Source: Fimicolochytrium jonesii
Taxonomy: Eukaryota
Length of the DNA stretch: 64,000 bases
Assembly: GCF_025526975.1 (NCBI RefSeq)
Contig: NW_026515692.1
Location: 372,001 to 436,000 of the forward strand
Reading direction: 5' to 3'
Positions 18,191 to 64,000 of the stretch are shown in pieces (positions within the stretch are counted from its first letter, which is position 1; each line of letters begins with the position of its first letter). The translations under genes were made by a program, and so were the position numbers. The notes beneath the pieces are model-generated. The model was not told the origin of the DNA. It ran no database searches and saw nothing but the letters and a program-made list of their open reading frames with translations.

Positions 18191-18914
18191 TGCTTGCTGC
18201 GTGGGTGGTGGTTGTTGGTGGGAGGATCTTGTTTCCCACGCCCCCCCACCAAGGGAAGTGAAGTTGAATCCATGCGGTCTCCCTTCTCCTCGTGTCCGAT
18301 GGGCTCCCCCTAAATTGATTGATCCAGGCGCAAGCCTCGAAGGAGAGAGAGGAACTCGCAACCCCTAACCCTAACCCCATTCATTACACTTGCAACTTGC
18401 ATCGAAAAGCCTCTCCATCCCCCAACCCCAGTTCCCCTACTCAGTCCCACTCAACTGGCCGATGCAGTGATGGTGGAATCAGATGGATGCCTCCGAGAGA
18501 GCGGAGGGAGGTGGTTGAGCACGGGAGACGTGATATATTTCCAAAGCCTCACGTCGTCAGGAATCTGGACCCCTACTGGCCCTATAACCCCTATCCTCCT
18601 CCACTTCATGCTTCCCTCCGCGATATTTGAAAGCCAGCAGTGTGCGCGAGAGGAGAGGGGGGATTGAAGCACAACCAGCCAAATCGGTAAAATCGAGGAG
18701 GCTCGCCTTCACAACGCGCAATGTGGCAAGAACGCGCGCGACCCAACTTACCCTTGGCACACGCAAATATCCATCCTGATGATTGGATCTGGAAGCCGCA
18801 CAGTTATGGAGCTTCGTTCCCATCTTCAACGGCATCATCTGGATCCGGAAATACCAATGCTACCCGCCCTCTGCCGCCGCGGGTTGCCGAAGCATCATGA
18901 AAAGAAAACGACCT

Positions 18915-38734: not shown

Positions 38735-39935
38735 TTAAGCTAACACCATCTGGACCGAGCGATCCCACCGGGAGGCAAAGCCACGCATCTTGGTATCTGC
38801 AAACGTATCATACAACAGGTAGCAACCCAAAATAGGGAGGTATGCTGCGGCTTTTTTTCCAGGTGTAGACTTGCGCTTAAGCCCTTGCTCCGCCTTCGGG
38901 ATCATCTTCAGTAGCTCTACGTCTGGTTCCGGCGCCTGGTTCATCAGCGTGGCGATCCGACGGCCGTCGGGGAACACGACGGTTCGTAGGAACTCCAGCA
39001 TTCGCAGGCCGTTGTGGACGCTCTCCTCGAGACGACCACAATGCAGACGGAAACCGTACTGCCACTCAACATCCAAAAAAGGCCGGCGGGGTGGAGAACA
39101 GGCGTCAGGCTTCTGAACGCAACTGTGGAGTGCGATACACAGGCGATGCGTGATGGAGGGTTTCTTTGGTGACGAAACGCAAAATTTTCCTTGATTCCAG
39201 AACCGCCTCGGCCGAACCCACAAAGATGTCCTTGTGAACTGCGGTGAGGTCCCTCTCGAATTCCATGACCAGAACGCCGCAATAGCGGGCCACACCGTAC
39301 CGGGCCACCACGGCAACATCGGAAAATGCACTCGCCACGTCTCCGAAATGGTGGGCAAATTCTAGCCGCACCGCCAAGGACGGAGACATGAAGGTGACAG
39401 CGTCAGCCATCAACCTGCTTCCCAATAGCTTGACCTCCGCTTCAAAGGGCGAACGTAAAGTGCCGATGTTCGCGTTGACCGCCTTAGAGAAGAGAGACGA
39501 CCGAAATGGACGGGATCGCCCACTGGCAGAGGCGTGGTGCCGCCATTGCGTCATGCACGCTTACGGGCTGCAAGTCCTCTTTGCGAGCCCACAACGTCGT
39601 CACGATGATTCTGTTTAATTCAAAAACAGCCTCACCAGGGGCAACGATGCTGTCCTTACGTTCTGCGACAGCATCAGGCGGAAACTCGACGATCGTGCCG
39701 GTGTAGGTGCGCTCACGGCTGATGGTAACTCCCCCTCACACGGGATGGACCGTGGGAATTGGCGAGGGTTCTTGACAATAGCCGTAACGACGACGATGAG
39801 GACCCTTGCACTTGAACTTGACCGCCGCGATAGGTGGATCTTGGTGAGATGATTGGCTCACTATCGATAAGGTCTTGAAAGTCGTCTATGTGCCCGTAAG
39901 CGTTCTGCTAGGCTGACATCGTGGGAGGATGTCAT
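38735..39935 (-). pseudogene. Decayed hypothetical gene, paralog of the gene at 40703-41315
   Basis: Start MTSSHDVSLAER-(frameshift)-YGHIDDFQDLIDSEP aligns with MTYSHDSNVAERYGPVARFQDLIDSEP; DNA 39840-39960 is similar to 41219-41332. Confidence 0.55.
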
Positions 39936-40702
39936 GATGAGATGATGAGACAGCTACGTGGGAAAGCAGCCGCTAGTAGCGAGCTGTTCAATTTATATAT
40001 GGGTTGGGACAGTAGTGGGTAATGGAGTCCCGCTACATATTCTATTACTTACGTTACATATTTATTGCGTTCTCAGTTTTCAGCTCATCCAATCTCCCAA
40101 TCCGTGCTCTGCCAGAGACCACATACTTGAAGAGGGACATGACGGCAATCGTGAACTCTCTGCGGTCAGAGACGATCGCCAGGTCATATGTTCGGGTGGT
40201 TTTTATGGCAAAAAAGTCGCCTTGACCAAAATCGATAGTTGGGTGGGCTGTCTCCAGCTTGTCTAAATAGCCTTCGGAGAAGCAGGCCGACACAATCTGC
40301 GCATGACGGTGATGCAACAGAATCCCGAAGGCCTACATTGCTCAACCGGTAAATATCTCATTTTCTATGTTCAAACGTAACAAAAAAGGTGTACCTCCGG
40401 GTTGTCATGGTGTTTTTGCTCTTGGCCGAACTGTACGATGGAGAGCAACTCCGCCGCGACTTGTCCAACAATACTGTCCTCCGGTTTTCGGTGCAGCAAC
40501 CGTTTGCACTCTTTGAAAATAGGAAAGTGTGTGGGAGTTGCTTTGGACTTCGCCCCACTGTCGAGAGCTACAACCACGGAACCATCCGTCTTACAAACAA
40601 CTTCCACCGCATGCAGCCGTAAACCTTTCGAAAAAGGTGGAGTTCTGCTCATTCAAATGTCCCAAATCCCAACATTGTTTAGACATTGATTATCACAGGT
40701 AC

Positions 40703-41315
40703 TCAACGACAGGAGACTTGCCTGTTTTGCAGGGTGACGAGTCTGTCATCTAGGGTTCTAACGAACCCAACTTCGTCCAGAATCCACTGCAGATAATCGT
40801 TCAAGAAGTGCACAACGGCCGTCTCGTCTTTGTCTTGCTTTTCGCTCTCCTGCGACTCCCTGCTCGCTACGCTTCCCGCAGAGCTGAACTCCAATATCTG
40901 CGCAAAGGCCGTATAAATGATGGATACGGGAGTCGGGAACTGGCGTCGCTTAGCGCCCTCGCGTATCTCCGATCTGTCTAAAACGAAGAAATCCTCTGCA
41001 AAGGAAAGCTCTGAAGGATAATAGAGAAGAGAGATAAGCGGAGAGCTCATCTGCGGCTTCCAACGTACTGCCAATTTGTATTACCCGTCGTCGTAGGCGC
41101 GCACTCTTTAGGTACGACCTCAAAATGGTCATCGCACTGGATCACTTTGACTTTTAGTGCGACAGCGTAGCGGGCGTCCCACTTTGACGCTGACTGGAAG
41201 CCTGTCGTCTGGAAGATCTTGGTAAGTGAGACGGCTGGCTCACTATCAATAAGGTCTTGGAAACGGGCTACGGGCCCGTAGCGCTCTGCTACGTTGGAAT
41301 CGTGGGAGTATGTCA
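40703..41315 (-). pseudogene. Decayed hypothetical gene, paralog of 38735-39935
   Basis: Shared 5' sequence and TATA-like TATATAAAT upstream of both copies; the frame is split. Confidence 0.5.
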
Positions 41316-41777
41316 TGTTGAAACAGCTACGGAGGTTCAAGGAACGACCTGGGCGGGAGCTGCCCATTTATATATACATGACGGGGCTTCCGCACAGCCC
41401 CCGTTACCTTCCGTACAACACAACCTATATATATACACTTAGAGCATCTTTACCCGTCGCCGGTTCTTTCATAAAAGGACCTATTAGGGGGTTTCAAAAT
41501 CCCACTTTTCGCGATAGTTTGGGGCGTTTTTTGGGGCGAAACTATCGGTTCTTTTTGGGGGGTGTGACCAATCAGAACGCGTGGTGTTTTTGGTTCCCTC
41601 CACACTCCATGCCCTTGGTGGTTTTCATTTTGAAAGCCCCTAAAGTCGGATTTTGCGCTTTGCGTTGTGCGCACTACGCAGTTTGCATTTGCTCATCACA
41701 CAGCTTCTGACTGCGATGATGAAAGTTCGCTGTGCGAAGTGCGTACTACGCTATCTCGACTTGAACTATCTTCATCA

Positions 41778-42021
41778 TGTTGGAGGTATCATCCTCCCGA
41801 GTCCCCGGTTAGGGTTCCCGTAGTTTGTTTCCTCACGTGACTCCCCTCCCGCTTACGCCACGCTTCCGCATACGGAACTTCACTCTTTTCTTCCCTTTCG
41901 GACCTCGCGTCCTCTTTACACTTCAGACTTCTCTGTATTACATCTTATACCATACAGTATTACATCTCACCATTACATAGAGTTCGCTCAATCATCTGCT
42001 TCCTCTGCTGACTACTGCTAA
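41778..42021 (+). repeat. Putative 5' LTR
   Basis: TG start and position immediately upstream of the PBS; 3' boundary approximate because no second LTR is present. Confidence 0.6.
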
Positions 42022-42023
42022 GT

Positions 42024-42037
42024 GATTATGAGCCCTG
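42024..42037 (+). promoter_or_regulatory. Primer-binding site complementary to the tRNA-iMet anticodon arm (half-tRNA priming)
   Basis: GATTATGAGCCCTG versus GGTTATGAGCCCTG used by copia/Ty5-type elements (one mismatch). Confidence 0.8.
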
Positions 42038-42112
42038 GCTTCGCCCGCAACTAGCAGACGGTCCAGGATAAAGAACTCACGGTCTCCAGTCACCGCTCTC
42101 TTAGAAAGCACC

Positions 42113-44067
42113 ATGCCACCTAAGGATTCAACAACCCAACCTCAGAAGGGCTACGCAGCTGCTGTGGCAGCCGGCAAGCCCTCCGCTCACAACACGCGGT
42201 CCCAAGGAGGAGCACTCCTGGGACCCCTACCTGCGGCCACTAGAGGAGGAGGAAAGAAAGTTCAACAACACGCTGTTAAGAGTTCTGAACCCTCGATTAA
42301 TCAGCGCTCTGGCATTGACTCACGTACTCCGCTTAATCAAGGCGTAGCCCGTCATGCCGACTTACGCAGTGAACCAACACCTACCCCGCCTTACAAAATG
42401 CCTGGTGAATTTGTGGATGAGAAGAAGAGGAAGGAGGAACTTTCTGCTACTATTCCAGAAGGGAAAGACGCAACCACGCCATATGTGGATGCGCCTGAAA
42501 CACGCGGACACACCGGAACCGAAAACAACCCCTTCCTGATGGATTCCATTCAGGAAGAACCTATGCCTGTCAAGCAGGAAGAGGAGGTGATTCAAATAAA
42601 GGATCAAATAGCCAGTCTGACTGGATTAGTTACCTCGCTCTTGAATTCGGACCGAGCGCCACAACAAGGCGGACCTACCGTCCCCTCCGTGAACCCGCTC
42701 ACTCAGTCGCCAGTGAACAGCACTCGCTCTCATTATTCGACTAGCCTTATCCAGGCAAACGCGCCATATATGACCTCGGTGTCACCGGCACCCCATGCGC
42801 CTCCTCAGTGCGCTATGGCCTACTCCGTCCCATACGCTTATAAAGCCCCGGAACGGCATCCTTACTTTCAAACCCGTTCTCAGAGCCCTCCTTTCGCTGA
42901 AATTCCTCACGAAAGTGCATCTGTGGGATCTGTTACTCCCGTAACACCCCCTACGGCCAGCAAATCAGCTTCCAAAGTCTTCATCAACACTACGATTAGT
43001 AAACTCGGCACCTACAACGGCGACCCCAAAGTTACCAAGCTTCAAGGGTTCATTGATCACATCGACGTGATTATGAAGTACCAGATGATTTCGCCTTCCG
43101 AATGCGTAGATTTCGTCGTCAACGCGCTCACTGGACCAGCTCTCCAGTGGTGGAAAAGCCTTCCTGAAAACGAGCGCTTCTCCATAATTTCATGGCATGA
43201 TATTGAAGACGTCTATGGACTGCCTCCTCAACTCGGATTACGCTCCGCGATGTTAAGGCGCTTGATTCCCCGGACTCATCTGCCGCAAGTTCTTCACAGA
43301 CTGCGCGCTCTGAAGCCCAAATCAATTAACCATCAAGGTTTAACCAAATTCGTTGCCCAGTTCAACCTTTTGGCTGGACAACTCCCCGGGCTCCCGGAAT
43401 ACGTGCTCTGTGCCGACTTCCTTCAAGCCCTTCCTAAGAATCTTAGTACCCTGATCACTGCTCAGGCTCAGTACGACGATCTACTTAGTCCTTCTCAAGA
43501 AGCCGCGATTTGTATAGCCGCCCAGCTCAACGAGAAGACCCTGAGTGCGCCTCAGTCGGGCGCATCCGCTGCCCACGTTACTTCCGCTCTACCTCAGAAG
43601 AAGAAGAACAAATGCAAGACTGGCGGCTCTAGAGGCTCCTGCTCTACGCAATCCTCGTCTTCTGACGCAATCAAGAAACCTCCCCAGTGCAAATACTGCC
43701 AAAGGGAAGGCCACAAGTCAGAAAACTGCTTTACTTACAAAGCTGTCAAGGATATTATGGACAAGAACGCGAAAACTAAGCAGGACGCACCCGCTGCAGC
43801 CTCCATGGCTTATGCCATACACGTCAAGTCCAACCAGCCAACCATGACGTCCGCATCTTCAAGGCGAACGTGGATTCCGGTTGTACGGATCATATGACCC
43901 CCTATATCGAGGAACTAGATCCATCTTCTCTTCAAGACTACCAACGCCTTATTGGACTCGCGGATTCGACTACCATTACCTCTCAAAAGAAGGGTACCGT
44001 ACTTACCCAACCTACGTCCGGCGGCAACGTTCTCGCTCTTTGCGACGTTCTATTGGTTCCCAGTCTT
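42113..44067 (+). pseudogene. gag: Copia gag-protease, frameshifted near 43870
   Basis: 594-aa ORF with LTGPALQWW and CKYCQREGHKSENC. The gag frame reads TWI and the protease frame reads VDSGC over the same GTGGATT, consistent with loss of one copy of a 7-bp repeat. Confidence 0.88.
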
Positions 44068-44087
44068 AGGGTTAGGGTTAGGGTTAG
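44066..44087 (+). repeat. Interstitial telomeric tract (TTAGGG)3TTAG at the copia / recombinase junction
   Basis: CCCAGTC-TTAGGGTTAGGGTTAGGGTTAG-TCCATG. Confidence 0.95.
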
Positions 44088-44312
44088 TCCATGCTTTTAT
44101 CGCCGCGCATTACTGATGGTCATAATCTGTCCCATTGTTTAGTTGCTGTTTCGCCTGCAGCCACGCCAACTACACCAATATCGTCTGGTGCGGATGTTCC
44201 GTATCCCTCGCCGCCATCAGGAAGTGCCGCCTTTACGCCAGCGTCACACCCTAGTGGTACTGTTGGAACCAATGCTCCGTTATTCGAGCCGCGAGCCACA
44301 CGCGACTGTGAG

Positions 44313-46384
44313 ATGTCGGAGCAATCAACCCGCGAAACGAGCTTTAACAGAAGCTTCAACACCGAGTTCAACACCGGCACAAGCGACGCAGCATTCAGCG
44401 ATGACGAAGACACAATTGAGTCGGATCTGCGACTTTCTAGAAGGGAAAAAATGACGGATGTAGACGACGCGGACCTTGCAAACGGAATAAAGTCGGTCAT
44501 CAAATTCAAGTGGTAAGTACACTTGTAGATACAATCTTGGTTTCTTCCTGCGCCCTTTTTTACAAGGCGACTCAACTAAGCGTTGTTCTTGATACACTGT
44601 AGTTACACACTCCAGGACTTTGAAATGACGACGTTGAACCACTCCGAGTTCCACCACTTGCGAGAGTTTTTCAGCACCCCACGACCGCGCGCCAAAGGAA
44701 TCAACCGAGTGCGCAATCCTCAGACAATCGCCAAGAGTCGTGAACGAATTTGCGGGTTTCTCGGCTGGCTGAAGCAATCGGGACGCGTAAAGCAACCATC
44801 GTTTAAAGACTTTCACGACTTGGACCTTTTCTTGGTGAGCGTCCCTCCCTTATTTGACAAGTGACATTTTTGGTAATATGTCCATAACATTTGTCGCTCA
44901 CCTGGTCGGTTAGGACAAGTATGTAGAAGGATATCTCGTAGGAATTCGCGGGCTGTCACACGGCTCCGTCGCAAACGCCATCACAGCTGCGATAGATGTG
45001 CACAAATTTCTAGAGTCGGAATCGTCTACAAGACTGCCGGGAACAAAAAAGTCGATGAGCATCACACGTCTTCAAAGCTACCGAAACAGAAAGCAGACTC
45101 TTGCAGAGCGAGAGCGTCAAGCCACTGTAGATGAGGATGGATCGACAATTTTATGGGAGCAAGTTTGTAATGTGCTTCGGCAGTACACGCAGCCAAAAGA
45201 ACATTAACATATTCCACTCCAGTTTCTAGAAGCGATTCGCTGCCAGAAAAAAGTGGTCGACAGCCTGCTAGTTGACGCACAGGACAGCCGGCTTCCGGCG
45301 CAAGTGCAAAAATACTTGGCGCTCGCTTTCTACGCGGCAATTCCACCCTCCAGAAGCAAAGAGATTCGACTTCTTTTGGACCGAATCCTTACCGAGTCAG
45401 AAAGTCGAACCTCGCTACAAAATCACATCACCCTTGTTCAGGGGCGCCATGTGATTGTTGTAAGGTATGTGGATATGGTGGCGAGCGGTCATTTTTCCGC
45501 GGAACACTACCTTATCGTCTTTTGTTTCCACCCTCTTTTTCTTCCAGCGACTACAAAAACAGTCTTTATAATGGGACAAGAGACGCCATCGAACTCCCTG
45601 ACGATTCAAGCATAATTTTAAAGTATCTTACATACTTTCTCCAGCCGATAGTTCGTGCGCAAGTTACGTCGGGGAAAAAACACGGCTATCTTTTCTGCAA
45701 AAACAACGGTGACGCATTCGACAGCGCGGGCGAATGGTCGGTGTATCTCGCCAGGATTGTCGAAAAGCACATCGGAATCGCCAACATTTCCAGTAACGCC
45801 TTGCGCCATTCTTTCACGACGTATATGGAGTCTGCAGTGGAAAGTGACCATGTTCGGCTACGCGAGAGCACCGCGTACGCAATGCGCCATAACATCAGGT
45901 ATAGTACCGCAATGGCTATCTGCGGAGTGTGAGGACAGTATCGGGACTGAATTCTTGACATCTGTAAAGGATCCAGCAACACACATACAACAACACCCCG
46001 TCTATAGAACGCAAAAGAAAAGCGGTCGACTTTGCTAGTCGCGTGTTCAAGCGCATAGTGCTGGAAGATTCGGCAACAGAAGCGGACTCCGACAACGGCG
46101 CACCACCCCTTGGAGCACTTGTAGGAACGAAACTGCTAAATGGACGACCTGGATTTGGAAAAGTAGTGCGTATCGAGAACGCCGACGCCATCATAATGCT
46201 ATTAACGCCGCGCCAGACCGAAGGGGCAACTTTGAGCGAATATGTCGCTGACATCGGAAGTCTATTACGACGCAACATAGCTAGGGAGATTCTTTATCCT
46301 ATTGATGGTGTTTATACTAGAGAGCAAGGGGTGTATGAGGTCTTTACGTCTTTAGAAGATGTGAAAAGGATGTTGGTACGGTAG
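44313..46384 (+). CDS. Tyrosine recombinase, OLV11/Polinton-like-virus type; exons 44313-44512, 44603-44834, 44914-45162, 45223-45464, 45548-45898, 45970-46384 (562 aa from this ATG)
   Basis: Five GT-AG introns keep a single open frame. Catalytic motifs PPSRSKE (R), SDYKN (K), NALRHSFTT, AYAMRHN and IQQHTYN (Y). The frame is open upstream to about 44143, so the gene may be 5'-truncated. Confidence 0.88.
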
Positions 46385-46437
46385 CTGTCGATTCGTGGGA
46401 GCTTTGACGCGTGACGCGTGACGAGCTGTTAACAGCA

Positions 46438-46850
46438 ATGAAAAAAGCGATTGTCCAATTTCAGCGATTGGAATTGTGTTAAGGAATGAAAGAGCGATTG
46501 CGACGCTCAAGGGGGATACGATTGAAAGGGGGGGGGGGGGGGGGTGAAAGAGCGATCGTCAGCTATGGGCTTTGTACTAAAGAATGAAAGAATGAATGAA
46601 AGAGCGATTGTCGCGTTAAGATCGACACGATGAAAGGGAAGAAAGAACGATTGTCGCGTTAAGGTCACACGCACGATGAAAGGGGATGAAAGAGTGATTG
46701 TTCCTTTCAAAGTCAACAGGATGAAAGGGGAAGAAAGAGTGATTGTTCCATTCAAAGTCAACACGATGAAAGGGGAAGAAAGAGCGATTGTTCCATTCAA
46801 AGTCAACACGATGAAAGGGGAAGAAAGAGCGATTGTCCCTTTGATGTCAG
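46438..46850 (+). repeat. Array of about ten AAAGAGCGATTG-like motifs, including five tandem units of about 45 bp
   Basis: ACACGATGAAAGGGGAAGAAAGAGCGATTGTTCCATTCAAAGTCA repeated over 46626-46850; dispersed cores near 46442, 46489, 46547 and 46599; G-run 46527-46544. Confidence 0.92.
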
Positions 46851-49838: not shown

Positions 49839-50714
49839 ATGTCAGACCCCTCTATAGAAAACGCGATGGAAAACGCAGTCATCACAATCGAGCAGCGCAT
49901 CGACAAAGACCTGATGAGCTGTGTCATCTGTTTGGATGAGCTCGACTTTCCCATTATTCAATGCTCAAATGGACCGCATTTTATATGTGCGGCGTGCGTT
50001 CCAAGAATCGACAAATGCCCAGTTTGTATGAGCGGAGGCTTCCTACACAATCGTCACCTCGAAAACCAGCTGATGCCCTTTGCAACATCTTGCACGGTCC
50101 CAGGCTGCGATCGCAAGTGCCTTCCTTGGGCAATAAAAAGTCATGAGCGCCGATGCGCTCATAGCTTATTTCCCTGCTTTATCTGCGGGAAACAGGTCTC
50201 TCTCCATGGTCTCGCAAAGCATTACAGCAGCGAATGCTCATGTGTGTATCAGGTGCACGACCGTTCAGGGCATCAAAGAGAAAGCCTTTTAACAATAGGC
50301 AGCTTGCATCCCGTCTTGCCTTTAAGAGACGAAAACAGCATATGCCTCTACTCTCAGGGCGTTAACCTTTTATGCAAGCCGATAGGTGGGAACTTAAGCG
50401 AGCACCCTTATTGGGGCGTCGTTGCTGTACAAAAGCCGCGCAACACGCCGACAGCAGAACCTCCTTTTGTAACGCTTCGCGTCCACGACAAGACTGGGCA
50501 ATCTTTGTCGTTTTTGTCGGTAACAATCAGAGCATTTAACGAGCTGAAACACGTTACGGCAGCGCATGCAGCCCTTATCCCCGCCATCAGCAATGACACG
50601 GAGCTCCATTGTAGCGTTCAAAGCAATAACATCTGGTTTTCCCCGCTATCAGGCATCCACTACGACGATGCGACAGATAATGACGATGACCTCGACAACG
50701 ACGATGCGACATGA
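49839..50714 (+). CDS. SINA/SIAH-like RING E3 ubiquitin ligase
   Basis: CVICLDELDFPIIQCSNGPHFICAAC..CPVC (RING) followed by NRHLE and SIAH-type zinc fingers (C..PGC..HERRC..PC..H). Confidence 0.82.
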   Translation: MSDPSIENAMENAVITIEQRIDKDLMSCVICLDELDFPIIQCSNGPHFICAACVPRIDKCPVCMSGGFLHNRHLENQLMPFATSCTVPGCDRKCLPWAIKSHERRCAHSLFPCFICGKQVSLHGLAKHYSSECSCVYQVHDRSGHQRESLLTIGSLHPVLPLRDENSICLYSQGVNLLCKPIGGNLSEHPYWGVVAVQKPRNTPTAEPPFVTLRVHDKTGQSLSFLSVTIRAFNELKHVTAAHAALIPAISNDTELHCSVQSNNIWFSPLSGIHYDDATDNDDDLDNDDAT

Positions 50715-50734: not shown

Positions 50735-51412
50735 TCATCCGGGTCTCAGATTACCATAATCGACCCAGAATGCTATCACCTCCAAAAGCTCGTTCTTGCT
50801 CCCTTTAAACCACTCGCAATGTCCTTTGGTGGTTTTACAGCAGCACTCGATATGACCAAGCCATTTGTTTTTTGTCTTTAGTTCATTGTGTATCAAGTGC
50901 TCGCACAAGCGATGGCGGCTTACCTTCCAATACCCTTCTAAAGTAATAGGTTGTTTGCATTGCCTCTCCCACTGTTTTCCGCGCTTTACCGGTCCCACCT
51001 TTGTGTTTGTACAACCGATTTTATACTGTTCCAGTTCTACGGATTGATTTCCACTTTTCCGAAACATATATATATACCCCGGTTCGTCGTTGCCTTTTTC
51101 CTTGTCGGACAGCAGTACGCTAAGAACGCGAAGACAACTGTGTCCCTTTAGCCGATCGGCAATCAAATTTAAATCATGATCTGGTGAGCAACGTTTTGAT
51201 GTGCGGACAGGGACAGGTGGCGGCTCAATACAAATAGGACCCAAAGGTTGCGGTAAATGGGTCTGCGATTCTAACGCTTGAGATTGCGATTGCAACCACT
51301 TGTTGCGCAATACTACTACAACCTTCTGGGGCAGAACGGACTTGATAAATAGGAAAAGTAAAGCACATATTGCTAGTAATTTAACGTGTCGCCAAAACTC
51401 GCATCTACGCAT
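50735..51412 (-). CDS. T5orf172/MUG113 (GIY-YIG superfamily) protein with N-terminal hydrophobic anchor
   Basis: PGYIYMF, YKIGCT, KRGKQWERQC, EHLIHNEL and HCEWF. Confidence 0.85.
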   Translation of the reverse strand: MRRCEFWRHVKLLAICALLFLFIKSVLPQKVVVVLRNKWLQSQSQALESQTHLPQPLGPICIEPPPVPVRTSKRCSPDHDLNLIADRLKGHSCLRVLSVLLSDKEKGNDEPGYIYMFRKSGNQSVELEQYKIGCTNTKVGPVKRGKQWERQCKQPITLEGYWKVSRHRLCEHLIHNELKTKNKWLGHIECCCKTTKGHCEWFKGSKNELLEVIAFWVDYGNLRPG

Positions 51413-51511
51413 CTTACTGTTTCACCACAAATTACTGTAGCGACAGTGCGCCCGCATGTAGCGTGTTGTGTACTTTTACGACGTGCGAATAATTAGAGCT
51501 CTGAGGTATAC

Positions 51512-51921
51512 TGCGAATAAATGGGCAACTCTTAATTTCGGCTTTATGCAAATTTGAATGATTAAATAATAAAAAGAAACAGATACTGAAAATAAATAGG
51601 CAACGTCTATGTCAGCTTTAGGCAGAATTGAATAATAAATAATAAAATAAATTAGATAATGCGAATAAATGGGCAACTCTTAATTTCGGTTTTTACGCAA
51701 AACTGAAAGATTGAATAATTAAATAATAAAAAGAAACAGATACTGAAAATAAATAGGCAACGTCTATGTCAGCTTTAGGCAAAATTGAATAATAATGCGA
51801 ATAAATGGACAACTCTTAATTTCGGTTTTTACGCACAACTGAAAGATCGAATAATAAAAAATCGAAATGATGCATATAGGTAGGGAACGTCTAATGTCAG
51901 CTTTAGGCAAAATTGGATAAA
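51512..51921. repeat. Three AT-rich tandem units of about 125-150 bp
   Basis: TGCGAATAAATGG(G/A)CAACTCTTAATTTCGG starts at 51512, 51660 and 51796; each unit contains AACGTCTA(A)TGTCAGCTTTAGGCA. Confidence 0.95.
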
Positions 51922-52674: not shown

Positions 52675-53301
52675 ATGAACGGCTCCGTAGACCCTTTCAA
52701 AGAAGTCGCAAAGTTTACAGACTATGCCGACTTCAAGCAGTGGTGCTCCCACAACAAACTCCCCCGTGGATACGCAAAGGCAGTTTGGGATTTCCACGAG
52801 AAGGAAGCCCGCGATATGGAATATAAACGCGAACGGCGCCACAACATTTTCGAGGACGGCGACCCTATCGCTGGAACCATCACGTCCCCTGCACTGCTCG
52901 ACCTTCGCTTCGACGCACCCATCCGCAAGACCCTTGTTCTTGTCGGTCCAGCCGGTTCCGGGAAGGTTCGATGGGTTCTCGAAAACAGCCCCAAGCCGAT
53001 CTACATCATTCGTTCCCCAAGCGACCTCCGCGGCTTCAGCAAGTTCCTGCAGCGATTTCCCGGTTACATCAAGTCGATGCTCTTTATCCAGATGGATTTC
53101 AAGAAATATCCTTATAACGAGCAGAGAAACGTGGTGGAAAGCCAAGTCCCCACTGCCCGTATTCCTTACCACGGACATGGGGTAAAAATCCCAGTCAATA
53201 TTCAGAGGACATTTGTCTGGAGCGGCGACGGATTCCCGTTTGGAGAAGAAGCGGGGGTCAGGCGTAGGATGCATATAGTTAATACAAATCTTGCTGAGTA
53301 A
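52675..53301 (+). CDS. CRESS-DNA-virus Rep-derived SF3 helicase domain (no HUH domain, degenerate Walker B)
   Basis: KTLVLVGPAGSGK, PKPIYII..SDLRGF, KSMLFIQMDF (usually IIFDDM), VKIP..RTF and PF...VRRR. Confidence 0.75.
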   Translation: MNGSVDPFKEVAKFTDYADFKQWCSHNKLPRGYAKAVWDFHEKEARDMEYKRERRHNIFEDGDPIAGTITSPALLDLRFDAPIRKTLVLVGPAGSGKVRWVLENSPKPIYIIRSPSDLRGFSKFLQRFPGYIKSMLFIQMDFKKYPYNEQRNVVESQVPTARIPYHGHGVKIPVNIQRTFVWSGDGFPFGEEAGVRRRMHIVNTNLAE

Positions 53302-55057: not shown

Positions 55058-55639
55058 GGCAGAAGGTTTTTGTCGCTGCAACTGGCTAGCTGCGTATTGC
55101 AAGCAGTTTATTGAGGGTCGTAGTTACTGGAATGAGTTTTTTGGGCTCAGTCGTGCGTTTGCGCGTGTCGTTTTTGAACCCATATGGACATTCCCTTCAT
55201 CATTTTTGAGTTTCATGTGAGTTGAACTATTAAGCAATCACGTCTGTTGACTTTAAACGAGTAGTTACTCACTGACGTTACTCAATACGATCTTTAATGG
55301 TTTTTGCGTGTGGGAAATGTTTCGATAGCTTGTATCTCCATGGACTATCAGAAAACCTGGGGAGGAACCCGGCTCGCGTTCAGTGATTATGTAATATCAT
55401 CCGCGCGGTCGGTCAAGCGTCTCGATCGATCGTAAGAGGAAAGAAGGGTAAACGAACACATAAATGATTGCCCATTTCTTACAATCGACCAGTTTATTTG
55501 GACTTGATGAAAACAACCGGATATGTGTATTTTGGAAAATATAAAAAACGATAATAAAGTTATTTGGTTAATAGCGGAAAATACGTCCGGTCGCTTAAAA
55601 AAGAAATGAGTATTATGGGTCAGATATAGTGCGAGTTTT

Positions 55640-55930
55640 ATTGGGTTAGGACCCTATTGGGTTAGGACCTAACCCTAGGAACTCAAGTGAGGAAATAAAT
55701 AGCAGAATTAAATGAAGAATTGATGAATAAAATAACAACAAATAGGAATACCGTTCATCCAAAAAGGCTGATAATTCACGAAATTACATTAATTCCACGA
55801 AAAGGGTATTTTACTTTGCAACAAACAAAAAAACAAAACCGGCAAGCAGTGAGGGTTAAAGATCGGGTTAGGGTTAGCGAGCGCCAAGACCTTGTTCGGC
55901 GGTCTTCATTGGGGTTAGGGTTAGGGTTCT
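55640..55930. repeat. Cluster of telomere-like GGGTTAG motifs in an AT-rich spacer
   Basis: TTGGGTTAGGACC twice and CCTAACCCTAGG (55641-55680), GGGTTAGGGTTAG (55865) and GGGGTTAGGGTTAGGGTT (55911). Confidence 0.75.
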
Positions 55931-57767: not shown

Positions 57768-60146
57768 ATGCGTATAAACAAGTTGCTGAAATCACCCTTG
57801 CTGAACGCAAAAGAGCGCAGTTCACTATTGGCTTACCAAAATCAGCGTAAAAAACATGACGCTTTCGAAGGAAATTACATTTACAAGCAGCCGCAAGGCT
57901 ACGGACGTCTTTATGTCGACGGCATTGGGCACCAGAACCTGTCAAAAAATATCAGAACTTACATCACAAACGGTTACTACACGGACATCGATGTTGTGAA
58001 CTGTCAACCGACGCTGACTAGATTTCTTTTCCAGCTTTTCCATCTCCAATGTCCGCCGGATCTGGAGCGTTACTTGACAGATAAGGGCGCCGTTCTAGCA
58101 GAAAATGGGATAACGGACAAGAAAGTGGTGAACAAGTATTTAAACAAAAGCAAAAACGACGCACCGCACGCGTTTCTTAGAAATATCCACAAGGAGATTT
58201 ACGAGAAGCTTGTGCCGCGCCTTCAGGAGTCGCCGGAGTTTAAGCCGCTGTGGCAGTGGGTCGAAGCTTCCGACAAGAAATACAACAAACGCGGCTCTTT
58301 TTTCTCGTACGTTGTGGCGAGTATCGAGAATCTTGTGCTTTCAGCAATGCACTGCTTTTTTACGAGAGGGGGTTTTTCGCCAGACAGCCTGATATTCGAC
58401 GGGATGCTCGTAAAAGCCGACCCTCGAATAAACGACGACCTGCTGAGGGAATGCGAGCGTTTCATCGAAAAGCAAGTGGGTGCACAGGTGCAACTCGCGG
58501 TCAAGCCAATGGAATGTACTGTGGATTTTGACAAGGAAATCACAGTTGACACAAGCAACATTGTAATAGAGGGTAATAAAGAGCTGTCAAAGTTGATAGA
58601 GGAATCTCGGAGCGGCACTAGTGGACGGCTTGCTATACTCGCCATGTATTTGATGAAAGAGCGATACATTTGCATTCGGCGCAGGCAGTGGTTTAAATTC
58701 GAACAGCACAAGTGGACCGAGCTGGCAGGGTGCCCAAGCATGGACGCAATGGACTTGTTACTTTGTCCCATTAAAGAGTGGTACGACGCACTGCTTGTGG
58801 AATTGGATCGCATGCAGTGCGAAAGCGAGGATGAAGCCGAAAGACGGTACTTAAAAACTCAGGTTGAAAGAGTGGAAAGGGAGAAAAGGATGCGCGTCGA
58901 AGCGATTGAAGACTCGGGGATAAGGGTGAAAATCATGAAAGACTTAGAGGATCTAATGGACTCTTATACAAAAGACGTCGTTTTTGACACAAAACCGTAT
59001 CTATTGTGCTTTAAGAACGGGGTGTACGATCTTTTACTAGACGAATTGCGGGATGGGTTGCCGGAAGATTATCTCACCATCGGCGTGCCGTACGCTCTTC
59101 CTGACTCTATGTGTCCTGACATCGACGCAAAGCTCGACGCTTTGCTAGAAAGCATCTTCCCTGATAAGGAAGTTCTTCTATACGTGATGCTGACGCTTTG
59201 CACATGTCTAGAAGGAATCAATCGGCACGAGCAATACTGGACGTGGCTGGGCGTTGGTCGTAACGGCAAGGGTATTCTCAAAGATCTAACGCAGCACACG
59301 CTTGGAGAAGAGCTGTGCAAGTTTCCAAAGCCAACAATTCTAACTACAAAACGGTGCGGGTCGAGCCAAGCGAACCCCGAGTTTGTCGACCTAAAAGGCG
59401 CACGAGCGGTATTCGTTTCTGAGCCGTGTGTCGGGGAGAAAATCAAAAGCGCAACCTTGCGTGAGCTTACCGGCAATGATAAATCCCGGCAACGAGGGTT
59501 GTACGGTGCGCAGGAGACCGTGAGCCCTGATTACAGCTTATTTCTCTTGTGCAACGGACGTCCAGAGATGGACGCCCCTGACACCGACGCGATTTGGGAT
59601 AGGGAAAATAGCGTCCATTTTCCACACAAGTTTGTGGAAGATCCAAAACTGCCTCACGAGCGCCTGACTGACAAGGGATTGAAGCAAAAGCTCACAGAAT
59701 ACGCGCCGTATTTCATGCTCAAACTTTTGCAATGCTACAAGCAGTACAGGGAAAATGGATTCAAGTTGGATGCGCCACAAGGTGTTTTAGCGGTGAGCCG
59801 AGAATACCGGTTGGAAAACAACCCTGTCGAAAAGTTCTACCAGGAGCAAGTGGTAAAGGCGTCTGAGACAACTGCAAACGAAGGTTTTGAAGAGCTGGAG
59901 TCAAACAGCATGCTGCTGCCGGTCTCTCGACTCTGGTCTTTGTTTGAAAGGTGGAGAAAGGACAACACTGTGGCGGCAAGTATATCGGAAAATGGGTTCT
60001 ATCAGAAGCTAGCGAAATTAGCCAAGTGTGATGGTTTAAAACCCGTGAAAAGAAAAGTGGATGGTGCAAGGGTTATGTGCTACGAGTGTATGGTTATTAG
60101 GGAGTATGAGTGGAGCGGCGTGGACAGCTGCTGGCGTTTAAATTAG
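57768..60146 (+). CDS. TVpol (PolA-like primase-polymerase) fused to a D5-like SF3 helicase
   Basis: YGRLY..Q..IR, YTDIDVVNCQP (motif A) and LIFDGMLV (motif C); D5-N LLCFKNGVYDL..PEDYLT; Walker A GVGRNGKG, Walker B AVFVSE, motif C LLCN and AIWDR. The 5' end may involve ORF 57581. Confidence 0.9.
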   Translation: MRINKLLKSPLLNAKERSSLLAYQNQRKKHDAFEGNYIYKQPQGYGRLYVDGIGHQNLSKNIRTYITNGYYTDIDVVNCQPTLTRFLFQLFHLQCPPDLERYLTDKGAVLAENGITDKKVVNKYLNKSKNDAPHAFLRNIHKEIYEKLVPRLQESPEFKPLWQWVEASDKKYNKRGSFFSYVVASIENLVLSAMHCFFTRGGFSPDSLIFDGMLVKADPRINDDLLRECERFIEKQVGAQVQLAVKPMECTVDFDKEITVDTSNIVIEGNKELSKLIEESRSGTSGRLAILAMYLMKERYICIRRRQWFKFEQHKWTELAGCPSMDAMDLLLCPIKEWYDALLVELDRMQCESEDEAERRYLKTQVERVEREKRMRVEAIEDSGIRVKIMKDLEDLMDSYTKDVVFDTKPYLLCFKNGVYDLLLDELRDGLPEDYLTIGVPYALPDSMCPDIDAKLDALLESIFPDKEVLLYVMLTLCTCLEGINRHEQYWTWLGVGRNGKGILKDLTQHTLGEELCKFPKPTILTTKRCGSSQANPEFVDLKGARAVFVSEPCVGEKIKSATLRELTGNDKSRQRGLYGAQETVSPDYSLFLLCNGRPEMDAPDTDAIWDRENSVHFPHKFVEDPKLPHERLTDKGLKQKLTEYAPYFMLKLLQCYKQYRENGFKLDAPQGVLAVSREYRLENNPVEKFYQEQVVKASETTANEGFEELESNSMLLPVSRLWSLFERWRKDNTVAASISENGFYQKLAKLAKCDGLKPVKRKVDGARVMCYECMVIREYEWSGVDSCWRLN

Positions 60147-60426: not shown

Positions 60427-63400
60427 TTATTCCTGTTCTCTCGACGCAATCTCCTTCCAGTGGGGATCACGGCTCATAAAGTCGTCGAGTTGTTTCGCGC
60501 TAAGCCTTTGATGCGTTTCGATTATGTTTGCCTGCATCGTCGTACAGTCTGTGCAAAACTCGCTCGGCTCTACTGTCTGCCTGTCGCATCGTTGTTTAGG
60601 CTTATTTAATTGGTGGCATTTGCCGCAGCTTGTGCCATCCGCAATCAGTGGCTGACCACAGACATTTTTTTGCTCCCTTACAAATTCTGGAGTAAGGAGG
60701 GAAGGAAGGAAATGAGTCAACGCAATCACGACCTGTGGGCTAAAATACACGTAAAAGCTTACTTGGCTTTACACTACATGTTTCCGGCTCGACATGAGCG
60801 GCTGCTGCACAATCATTGTCTTGGGCACTTGAACGACTCGCTCCAGCTCCAGTATCCTGATCTAACTGTTCCTCGTCATACTGCCGAGAGGCGAACACTT
60901 CTTCCGCGATACGGCTGTGTTTCTTACGGAGCTCATTAGGAGGCACGGAGGTCCAGTCCGAAGTGTCTCCAAGAATAAATTGGGTTGCCCACTCAAGAGC
61001 ATAGGGTCCACAACTGTTAGCGTCCGTTTGTTTCGGGATGAGCTTAGACGCTGTGACAGTGTCGATTGGGGGACACGGTATTGCAGTCACGGTGTCTTGA
61101 GTGACCACACGTTTGACCACCTTTTCCACCTCGTCGATGTGGGCTCCTTGATGGAAGGAGTCCGCAAATTCCCATCTCCACTCCTGAGCAGACATTTTGC
61201 TTGCGGTATAGACGACCCAGTGGTTTTTACCGCGGTTGAAGGGAGCCACGATTCTTTTGGTTTCGTCGTCAATGATACGGAAGCCTCCATCAAGGCTATC
61301 GACAACTGACAAATCCTCGTGGTTCGCTTTGGCGTGGTTCAAAAGATAGTAGAAGCAGGTGTCGTTGTACCACTCGGCTCGAAGGCGTTGTACCATGTCT
61401 TCATAAGATGTCTTGCTGATGCGATCAATGGACGCTGTACGTTGTGGTTTCCCCATTTTCGATAAAGATCGTTTTGGTGTGGAAGCCGAGGCGAAAAGCC
61501 TTTTTCCTTTAAGCGCCGGAGTCCTAGGGGTTGGGTACGGGTTGAGCTTACGGTCCCGAGTTGGAGGTGTCCCAGTGAACGGGGTCGACGCCACGGGCGA
61601 TCGGGCGACTTGTTCATCGACAGGCGAAGCAATAACTTCCTCCGCAAATGTCGGGAGGGTCACACTGTTCCATTTCGTCCATTCTGCCGGCGATACGCTT
61701 TTGCTGCGTCGGATTCTCCGCAGGACTGCGTTCCAGGTACGTGCAGTGATTTGCAAAACGCCTTTCTTTGACAAGAATTCTAACCCATCAGATTCAAAGT
61801 TGAAAAGCAAGATTCCCTTTCCGATTGCGTCGACCAAATCCCTGAATCGCTTCCCTGCATTCACTTGTCGGCGAAAGACCTTGGTGTTTTTGGGGATGAT
61901 GCCTTCCCTCGTCATCCAGGTAAGAACTGCGTTCGTGAATTTGCCGTCATCTTTGATTATCGTGTAAGGTCCGGACGTTCTGCGAATCAGTACCTCGCGC
62001 ATCCCGTAGTCTACGCATCTGTCGTACGCGTTTGCAAGAGCAACTGCACAGACATATGACTGAAAAATGGCAATATCTCTGTGCAAAAGTTACAATGAGT
62101 GACTTTTCTTTGTCAATGTGGTATTATCGAAGCAATTTACCTGTTTCCGGTGCATTTCTCCATTCTGTGCCATGCGACGGTCAGAGCTTTGTCGGCAGTT
62201 TCTTCGGGAGCACTCAGATCGATTTCCATAAGATCAGTATGTTCCAGACCTTTACTGGTTAAAAAATATGTCGGATGTAAGCTCTGTGTTCCCCTGAATT
62301 TACCGGTAGTAATGCCTGTGTAGAAGCCACCCATTACCTAACCAGCGTGACACACTCTTCTAACTCGGCAGCTGTTATCTCTTCCAATTTCTCCAACAAC
62401 CTCGTGATGAATGTGTCTTTACTCGAAAATGTTTCGTCATCTGATGAAGGGGGTGTCCCACGGGGTGTCCCATTGCGCGAACGGGTCCCCGTTTTCGAGG
62501 GTTTTGTGACGTGGTTTATGCTTTGCTTGCGCTTTTTTTTGCGCTTCTTTGCTGGACGGTGTGCCTTGTTGTCATCATGTTTTGGTATCTTTCTCTTGTC
62601 ACCAGTTGTTTCGGTGTCGTCCGTTTCTTCGCCCGATTCCTCGTCTTCGTCCGAGTTCCTCTCCGTTTCCGTGGCGTCCTTCCCTTCCCCACATTCCTCG
62701 TCTTTGTCTGAGTTCCTCTCCGAGGCGTCTTCGGTGTCCAAGTTCACGTTTGGTGCAAGAGGTGCTGCACCCTCTTCCGACTTGTCCCTAGTTTTTTCTT
62801 CTGGGTCCGAGCTGATTGTTGCTACGCGCTCGTACACTTGAACTCTCCGTTCGTCGGCGTGATCCTCTGTCGTATACTTTGCAAGACTCGTTTTATCAAC
62901 AGATGACCTAGTAAAAGGTGTGGACTTTAGACGTTTTTAAGCTTATGGCTCCAGAAAGCGACAGACTTTACCGCACGCTTCTTTCCATCACTAAGCGGGT
63001 TACACCTTTCTGTGCCAGGATCGCCACGAATAGTCCTATGACAGACGTCAAGGGTTCTTCAAACGTCACGTCTTGCAGTGGAAAGTAATGGACAACAGTG
63101 CCAGTTGTAAGCGATTCCAGGGTTCCGTTTATTTTTGTATAGACTGGCGGCGCTGTGCCTTGTATCCATCCGCGCATGGTCTCGTGTATTGTCCTCATAA
63201 CCTCGTTCCTGTCGTCTTCAAGATTAGGTATATCATCGAGAGAATAAAGGTCGGAAACTGTTTTTCGGATGAGGTGGTGGGCATCATCTTTTCCAGAGTT
63301 GCCGATAAATCGCAAGAGGTCCTCAAATGACTTCAGGAGACTGAGCACAGGTTCTCCGGCGCTGCCCATACGCGCCCGCTCGTAGCCTGTCAAGAACTTG

Positions 63401-63606: not shown

Positions 63607-64000
63607 ATCTTGTTACTGGTCCGAAATGGGAAAAGGGGGTGTAAGCGTCTTTGTGTTGTTTCCGACAGCCTGTGGTATAAGTGCACCGAAGCGGAGAGTT
63701 GTCCATTTTGCTGACTAAGCAGATGAGGATGACTCAGCACAGACACTCGGGTGCTGGAGGTTCCTAAAGCTATACTGTTCTGCAAACTTATCACAGGTCT
63801 TTCAGTGAGCACGGAGGGGGATACTCGTTTTGCCCTACTAACATCCCGCTTGTTACCATCGCGTATTCCAATCGCACAGGGGGCGACAGCGCACTTGCCA
63901 AAAGGTACTTGCCGCGGCGGAAAAACCTAGACAACAGACTCGGATTTGACGAAAGGTCCTTTTACAGATTGTGGAGTTGATCACTGTATCTCTTTCAGTT

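Follow-up and report, generated by a model that had tools for sequence, protein, structure and literature searches.

A short telomeric tract between a truncated copia-type retrotransposon and a tyrosine recombinase gene without its first exon in Fimicolochytrium jonesii: a likely vestige of a healed chromosome break

A stretch of 64,000 nucleotides from the soil chytrid fungus Fimicolochytrium jonesii was analysed, and is called here the window, with positions counted from its first letter. From left to right, it holds host genes that look fungal, a truncated copia-type retrotransposon, a telomeric tract, a tyrosine recombinase (YR) gene without exon 1, and a virus-like region (Table 1).

Table 1 Features at the junction and in its surroundings, with positions in the window.
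Feature	Position	Strand	Evidence or remark
Telomeric run, C strand, 15 nt	18363-18377		Window scan
Putative 5' LTR of the copia-type element, starting with TG	41778..42023	+	Position; boundaries inferred
Primer-binding-site-like 12-mer	42024..42035	+	11/12 match to the presumed tRNA-iMet motif
gag ORF, 594 aa, CCHC knuckle	42113..43897	+	Pfam Ty3_capsid 4e-7, Retrotrans_gag 2e-6
Retrotransposon protease (VDSGCTDHM), cut off after LVPSL	43870..44067	+	Pfam Pol_BBD E 1.5e-9
Telomeric tract at the junction, 22 nt	44066-44087	+	Window scan
Remnant of YR intron 1	44083-44142	+	Acceptor from paralogue gene model; donor GTTAGT overlaps the tract, inferred
YR gene, exons 2-7, exon 1 absent	44143..46384	+	P0001 and P0002 mapping
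YR exons 2-7 (approximate)	44143-44512, 44603-44834, 44914-45162, 45223-45464, 45548-45898, 45970-46384	+	
RING-finger gene	49839..50714	+	Pfam Sina_RING 6.5e-8
T5orf172-domain gene	50735..51412	-	Pfam 7.5e-15
Telomeric runs, G strand	55865-55877 (13 nt), 55912-55928 (17 nt)	+	Virus-like region
D5-type primase-helicase, 792 aa, intronless	57768..60146	+	Pfam D5_N 1.3e-9, PHROG primase 4e-54
Ulp1-type protease	60740..62002	-	Pfam Peptidase_C48 2.6e-5

The retrotransposon has gag and then a Pol_BBD protease, the order of Ty1/copia elements, with a frameshift between the two near position 43870. The label copia rests on the protease, since the gag matches bear the names Ty3_capsid and Retrotrans_gag. 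The 12-mer at 42024 resembles the internal tRNA-iMet site of copia elements. The Pol_BBD match covers profile positions 3-68 of 81 and stops at the telomeric tract, so the break lies inside the domain. In the protease frame, ..CDVLLVPSL is followed by RVRVRV, which is encoded by the tract. The conserved last Leu codon, CTT, shares its TT with the start of the tract. Intact copia copies were found neither by a homologue search with the protease piece (none among 58 candidates, a weak search) nor by an exact look-up of the gag ORF in the protein collection. No PDB relative of the protease piece was found either (best E 0.14). Beyond the break, integrase, RT and RNase H families matched none of the 111 ORFs of at least 70 aa at 44-64 kb (Pfam and further searches), self-BLAST found no second LTR copy in the window, and seven known copia motifs occurred nowhere in it. 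A remainder of the copia on the far side of the element, a possibility raised by an earlier reading made from the sequence alone (the sequence-only reading), was thus absent from 44-64 kb. Just left of the copia lie two copies of a ~105 bp sequence (39837-39940 and 41215-41321, 79% alike), and at each copy lies the 5' portion of a small ORF on the minus strand.

The telomeric tract, TTAGGGTTAGGGTTAGGGTTAG or (TTAGGG)3TTAG, consists of 3.7 perfect units. It sits exactly at the break of the copia protease, as the sequence-only reading had it, and both flanking genes are cut there, in the protease domain on the left and in the YR gene on the right. In 64 kb, 4.4e-8 such tracts are expected from base composition (order 0) and 2.4e-9 under an order-2 model, which rules out a chance origin. 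TTAGGG is presumably the telomere repeat of F. jonesii, as we take it to be the ancestral fungal repeat; nothing was found in the literature that confirms it for this species. Telomerase adds the G-rich strand to 3' ends. In the tract, TTAGGG stands on the forward strand after the cut copia, with the G-strand pointing away from it, and this fits telomerase extension of the copia end.

Four telomeric runs of at least 12 nt were detected in the window (22, 17, 15 and 13 nt), the junction tract being the longest and the shorter ones lying away from any identified junction. The C-strand run, (CCCTAA)2.5, belongs to the host DNA, where it is located upstream of a HIRAN-domain gene, and could be a promoter motif or another relic. 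In an AT-rich part of the virus-like region, telomere-like G-strand tracts occur together with a TATTGGGTTAGGACCC dimer (55639-55677, 55865-55877 and 55912-55928), and no junction was identified at these tracts (55639-55928).

The whole YR gene has seven exons, and the window copy lacks the first. Its gene model, P0002 (KAI8817883, F. jonesii), is identical to the YR exons of the window and has a PHROG integrase match with an E of 3e-4. The splice-like signals noted earlier were all found in place: GTTAGT at 44083, TACTGAT at 44111-44117, with its branch A at a distance of 26 nt from the AG, and a TTTAG that ends at 44142. Together they span 60 nt as intron 1; the other five YR introns measure 60-90 nt. 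Even unspliced, the YR frame is open from an ATG at 44091, and from there only the N-terminal domain is missing. Directly after the YR stop codon, about nine decaying tandem repeats of ~45 bp follow on the forward strand (46440..46850). They may be the true element end, and the window YR may be the last gene of a nearly lost copy.

The lost part of the gene was recognized from a near-identical paralogue, P0001 (KAI8817890, F. jonesii). P0001 has 126 extra N-terminal residues, ending in ..SFTQ, and matches the window from Val127. The Val127 codon is made of one G from the upstream exon and the TT at 44143, which places the acceptor at 44142 in phase 1, in agreement with the acceptor proposed from the sequence. 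P0001 and P0002 are each encoded on a contig of 459,799 nt, two window proteins downstream of the YR likewise come from a contig of this length, and the accession of P0001 comes seven after that of P0002. No second YR was found in the window (self-BLAST and YR exon mapping), so P0001 is probably located a short way past position 64000, judging by the accession order. Three residues differ between the two YRs (Q446R, V473A and D597N), and all three can be explained as CpG transitions from the window's codons. This pattern suggests that two copies decayed separately, not that one locus was assembled twice. The gene model of P0001 repeats its 3' half, and both copies carry the same three substitutions.

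The paralogue also bears on the donor of intron 1. The Gln of P0001 and the phase-1 G fix A at position -3 and G at position -1, and the tract has both. This agreement supports the donor modestly, because A and G are in any case the bases preferred at these exon-end positions. GTTAGT may have been the native donor of intron 1, which would account for the microhomology.

Searching with the YR exons retrieved 10 of 69 candidate proteins; nine were named, all of them chytrid. Other recombinase copies do have an upstream exon, one of the points on which the sequence-only reading had turned: besides the 126-aa first exon of P0001, the same N-terminal domain is fused to the YR in P0007 (Borealophlyctis), P0013 (F. 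jonesii, on a separate contig of 700,724 nt) and P0163 (Geranomyces), which makes three genera. These four fusions show that the exon-1 domain is a genuine part of the YR gene. With exon 1 lost, the junction therefore lies inside a gene and not at an element end. A profile of the N-terminal domain matched 13 of 170 proteins, including nine that were used to build it, and had no match in the six frames of the window. Its structural look-alikes are BRO-N/ORF6N-type DNA-binding domains, all below the naming threshold, and this predicted likeness is a lead only.

The domain is present in 4 of 18 named chytrid models with a YR body and absent in the remaining 14 (P0002-4, P0006, P0008-10, P0014-16, P0160-62 and P0164); the 18 do not include P0030 and P0165, which have only the linker, and P0081, which has only the domain. 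Many of the domain-less models come from short contigs or have an internal Met as their start. Missed first exons would be the plain explanation for the 14 cases, and recurrent splitting at intron 1 would explain them too. A weak search for a stand-alone exon-1 protein found none among 93 short candidates, and the short exon-1 ORFs found by a later profile search resembled read-throughs or partial models. Several YR bodies have foreign N-termini. In P0160 and P0165 (Geranomyces), a signal-peptide-like exon is joined to the YR body exactly at the exon-2 start, the YR body of P0014 (Geranomyces) also has a foreign N-terminus, and in P0009 (F. jonesii) the YR body is joined to a poly(A)-polymerase-like fragment. 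These are either gene-model errors or further junctions.

The virus-like region has a GC content of 45.8%, versus 53.8% left of the copia. Polinton-like viruses with a YR and a primase-helicase are reported for Spizellomyces and other chytrids in the accessible text of two studies (PMC7805220, 10.64898/2026.06.19.733378). As in Polinton-like viruses, which combine a YR or RVE integrase with a replication gene, a YR and a primase-helicase are found here, together with a GC content lower than that of the host and repeated AT-rich modules. Unlike in the Polinton-like viruses described there, there was no capsid or packaging ATPase match and no terminal inverted repeat within the window, and the YR has six introns. 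For double jelly-roll capsid and A32 ATPase, the Pfam search matched none of the 111 ORFs at 44-64 kb, a count to be read with the divergence of such genes and with a region that runs off the window. The available part of a paper on fungal giant viruses mentions F. jonesii solely on account of one isolated capsid gene, which sits on a host-like contig (PMC13533422), and virophages near telomeres are described for a protist in the portion available of another (10.64898/2026.07.28.741278).

Upstream of genes of the virus-like region, two AT-rich repeat pairs were found (52049-52377/56021-56348 and 56623-56718/57473-57569; 70% and 81% alike), as well as a tandem repeat of ~150 bp (51508-51920). 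These AT-rich modules and the tandem repeat look like shared promoters or origins. A 208-aa ORF with a P-loop (52675-53301, +) had no Pfam or PHROG match; we take it to resemble the helicase half of CRESS-virus Rep proteins. In viral contigs, relatives were found in none of 34 candidate stretches for the YR and none of four for the D5 protein.

We consider it likely that the tract is an internalised telomere vestige, left by a break in the copia, extension by telomerase, and a microhomology join at the donor of intron 1. In this sequence of events, a chromosome would have broken inside the LTR retrotransposon, and telomerase, the presumed source of the repeats, would have added TTAGGG to the copia end, with 1-2 nt of the Leu codon CTT as a possible seed. 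The repeats at the copia end would then have eroded, or the end would have been handed over at once. The remaining tract could have paired with GGTTAG at the exon-1/intron-1 boundary of a YR gene, or with up to AGGGTTAG if the Gln codon is CAG. Repair may have proceeded by microhomology-mediated break-induced replication or by end joining, copying onward through the element, and the duplicated YR, P0001, offers a template. A stable telomere may have existed in between. The two breakpoints are fixed independently by homology, by the end of the Pol_BBD match on the left and by the P0001 match from 44142/44143 in phase 1 on the right. The sequence-only reading had proposed a similar course of events as one of two options. 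For the most part it held up: its first exon is indeed missing, the strand polarity agrees with it, and its GTTAG microhomology would be plausible from the overlap of tract and donor. The product of the junction is most likely inert, though the N-terminally shortened YR frame is open from 44091.

Relics of this kind are described for Pyricularia oryzae, where, in the accessible text (PMC8381367), internal runs of at least three repeats average 10 per genome, mostly in the orientation of a former telomere. Once telomerase was lost, microhomology-mediated replication or NHEJ linked small telomere vestiges with other subterminal DNA, and vestiges also lie at the borders of tandem amplifications (PMC8381367, same text). 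In the available portion of a study of new telomeres, seeds of 1-4 nt were present in 19 of 24 cases (PMC7367193). The F. jonesii tract resembles the Pyricularia relics, as described there, in being an internal TTAGGG tract of at least three units with former-telomere polarity that is joined to duplicated sequence. Its perfect repeats are beyond chance, its G-strand is directed away from the broken side, and its distal DNA is duplicated elsewhere at the protein level. It differs in its chytrid host, in having an LTR retrotransposon on the left side in place of a MoTeR or a native telomere junction, and in the captured DNA, which is a virus-like YR element joined at one of its introns. In mammals, short interstitial telomeric sequences form where DNA has broken, and deletions and bases in register with the repeat are frequent there, according to the text available (PMC2246262). 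They share with the present tract the few perfect repeats at a repair junction and the loss of flanking DNA; as far as that text goes, their two flanks derive from one ancestral locus, whereas here two unrelated elements meet, the copia on the left and the YR intron on the right. No description of such junctions in chytrids was found in the literature. On the preferred reading, the scar is most likely a one-off repair event of a known kind.

An unlikely alternative does without telomerase. The repeats would be native to YR intron 1, or copied from the telomere-like tracts of the element, and a deletion or translocation would have joined the copia to them through 2-4 nt of microhomology. Two G-strand tracts, one of 13 nt (55865) and one of 17 nt (55912), share both element and strand with the junction tract, and the element itself could therefore supply such repeats; donors at 44071 or 44077 would give introns of 72 or 66 nt in the right phase. 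However, no internal tract reaches the length of the one at the junction, and the exon-1 read-through tails of P0038 (Ser-Lys) and P0122 (Cys-Lys) fit phase-1 GTAAG donors, a weak point that depends on back-translation. After the domain, a telomere-type peptide run occurs in none of the 13 domain-bearing proteins, although a GTTAG donor directly after the G would run into a stop at once and remain invisible.

We regard an assembly artefact, in which the assembler combined a telomere-terminated read with other sequence over a few bases, as quite improbable. In its favour, the region is duplicated and the two 3'-half copies in the P0001 model share three substitutions. Against it, the window contains no N, the contigs with F. 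jonesii YR models are 0.41-2.16 Mb long, the tract measures no more than 22 nt, and three residues distinguish P0001 from the window copy. For 41700-46400, a look-up of sequencing runs and RNA sources gave no match, which speaks neither for nor against an artefact.

There is a slim chance that the YR itself made the junction, by integrating a circular virus-like element through its own intron-1 site, with a core AGGGTTAG matching telomere repeats, into the healed copia end and so splitting its own gene. The intact P0001 would then, at equally slim odds, be the junction between tandem units. The join at or near the intron-1 donor fits such an event, and the order of cut YR, virus-like cargo and intact YR would be that of a tandem, permuted circle. 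It would also agree with the absence of exon 1 from 14 of 18 chytrid models and with the foreign N-termini of P0160 and P0165, which give way to the YR body precisely where exon 2 begins. Archaeal SSV-type 'suicidal' integrases are a precedent for splitting the own gene at the integration junction (PMC7253208, accessible text). Unlike them, as presented in that text, the YR family has intact integrated copies, and the SSV target is not telomeric. The integrated copies are not confined to two halves, since 4 of 18 chytrid models, from three genera, are intact and one of them (P0013) is on the 700-kb contig; tandem arrays could explain some of these. Intron 1 may not be conserved either: in P0150 the frame stays open from the N-terminal domain across the entire linker, and in distant members the domains share a single intronless ORF. 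The 45-bp repeats look like a separate, ordinary element end, and YR fragments are scrambled elsewhere too (P0009, the metagenome stretch L001 and the duplicated half of P0001). It is similarly doubtful that a whole chytrid virus-like family integrates as circles into telomeres via intron 1 of its own YR, with a TTAGGG-matching core. If this held, the archaeal suicidal integrases would have a telomere-targeting equivalent in eukaryotes, and eukaryotic DNA viruses a new way of integrating. A recombination site inside intron 1 is the only form, at low odds, in which the other option of the sequence-only reading survives; its original form, an element that ends in or targets TTAGGG, does not fit a junction inside the YR gene.

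The remaining candidates were rejected: a telomere-targeting or telomere-ended mobile element, as no element end abuts the repeats and the junction lies behind the lost YR exon; the element's own left telomere, which would read CCCTAA on the forward strand, the wrong strand for the tract; a simple insertion into the copia, as the junction is inside the YR and no copia remainder is in the window; and an in-frame copia-YR fusion protein, as all three GTTAG donors of the tract are phase 0 in the protease frame and the acceptor requires phase 1.

If the likely reading of break, telomerase healing and later capture is correct, the locus is a clean single-locus record of these events in a zoosporic fungus, and would show how chromosome-end repair can duplicate and cripple endogenous virus-like elements. 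The mechanism as such is already established in Pyricularia and mammals. The locus also exposes a YR family that is barely recognised by Pfam and extends beyond chytrid gene models. Its architecture is an N-terminal domain, a linker, the YR and a C-terminal domain, with 203 relatives at an E of up to 0.001. Distant relatives of 670-760 aa (P0029, P0033-P0035 and P0043) are intronless. Among 82 metagenome stretches, L001 was the one that encodes a YR relative, without the 5' region. Its positions 1-170 are the tail of one YR, and positions 591-1178 belong to a second, partial YR that lacks one intron of the window gene.
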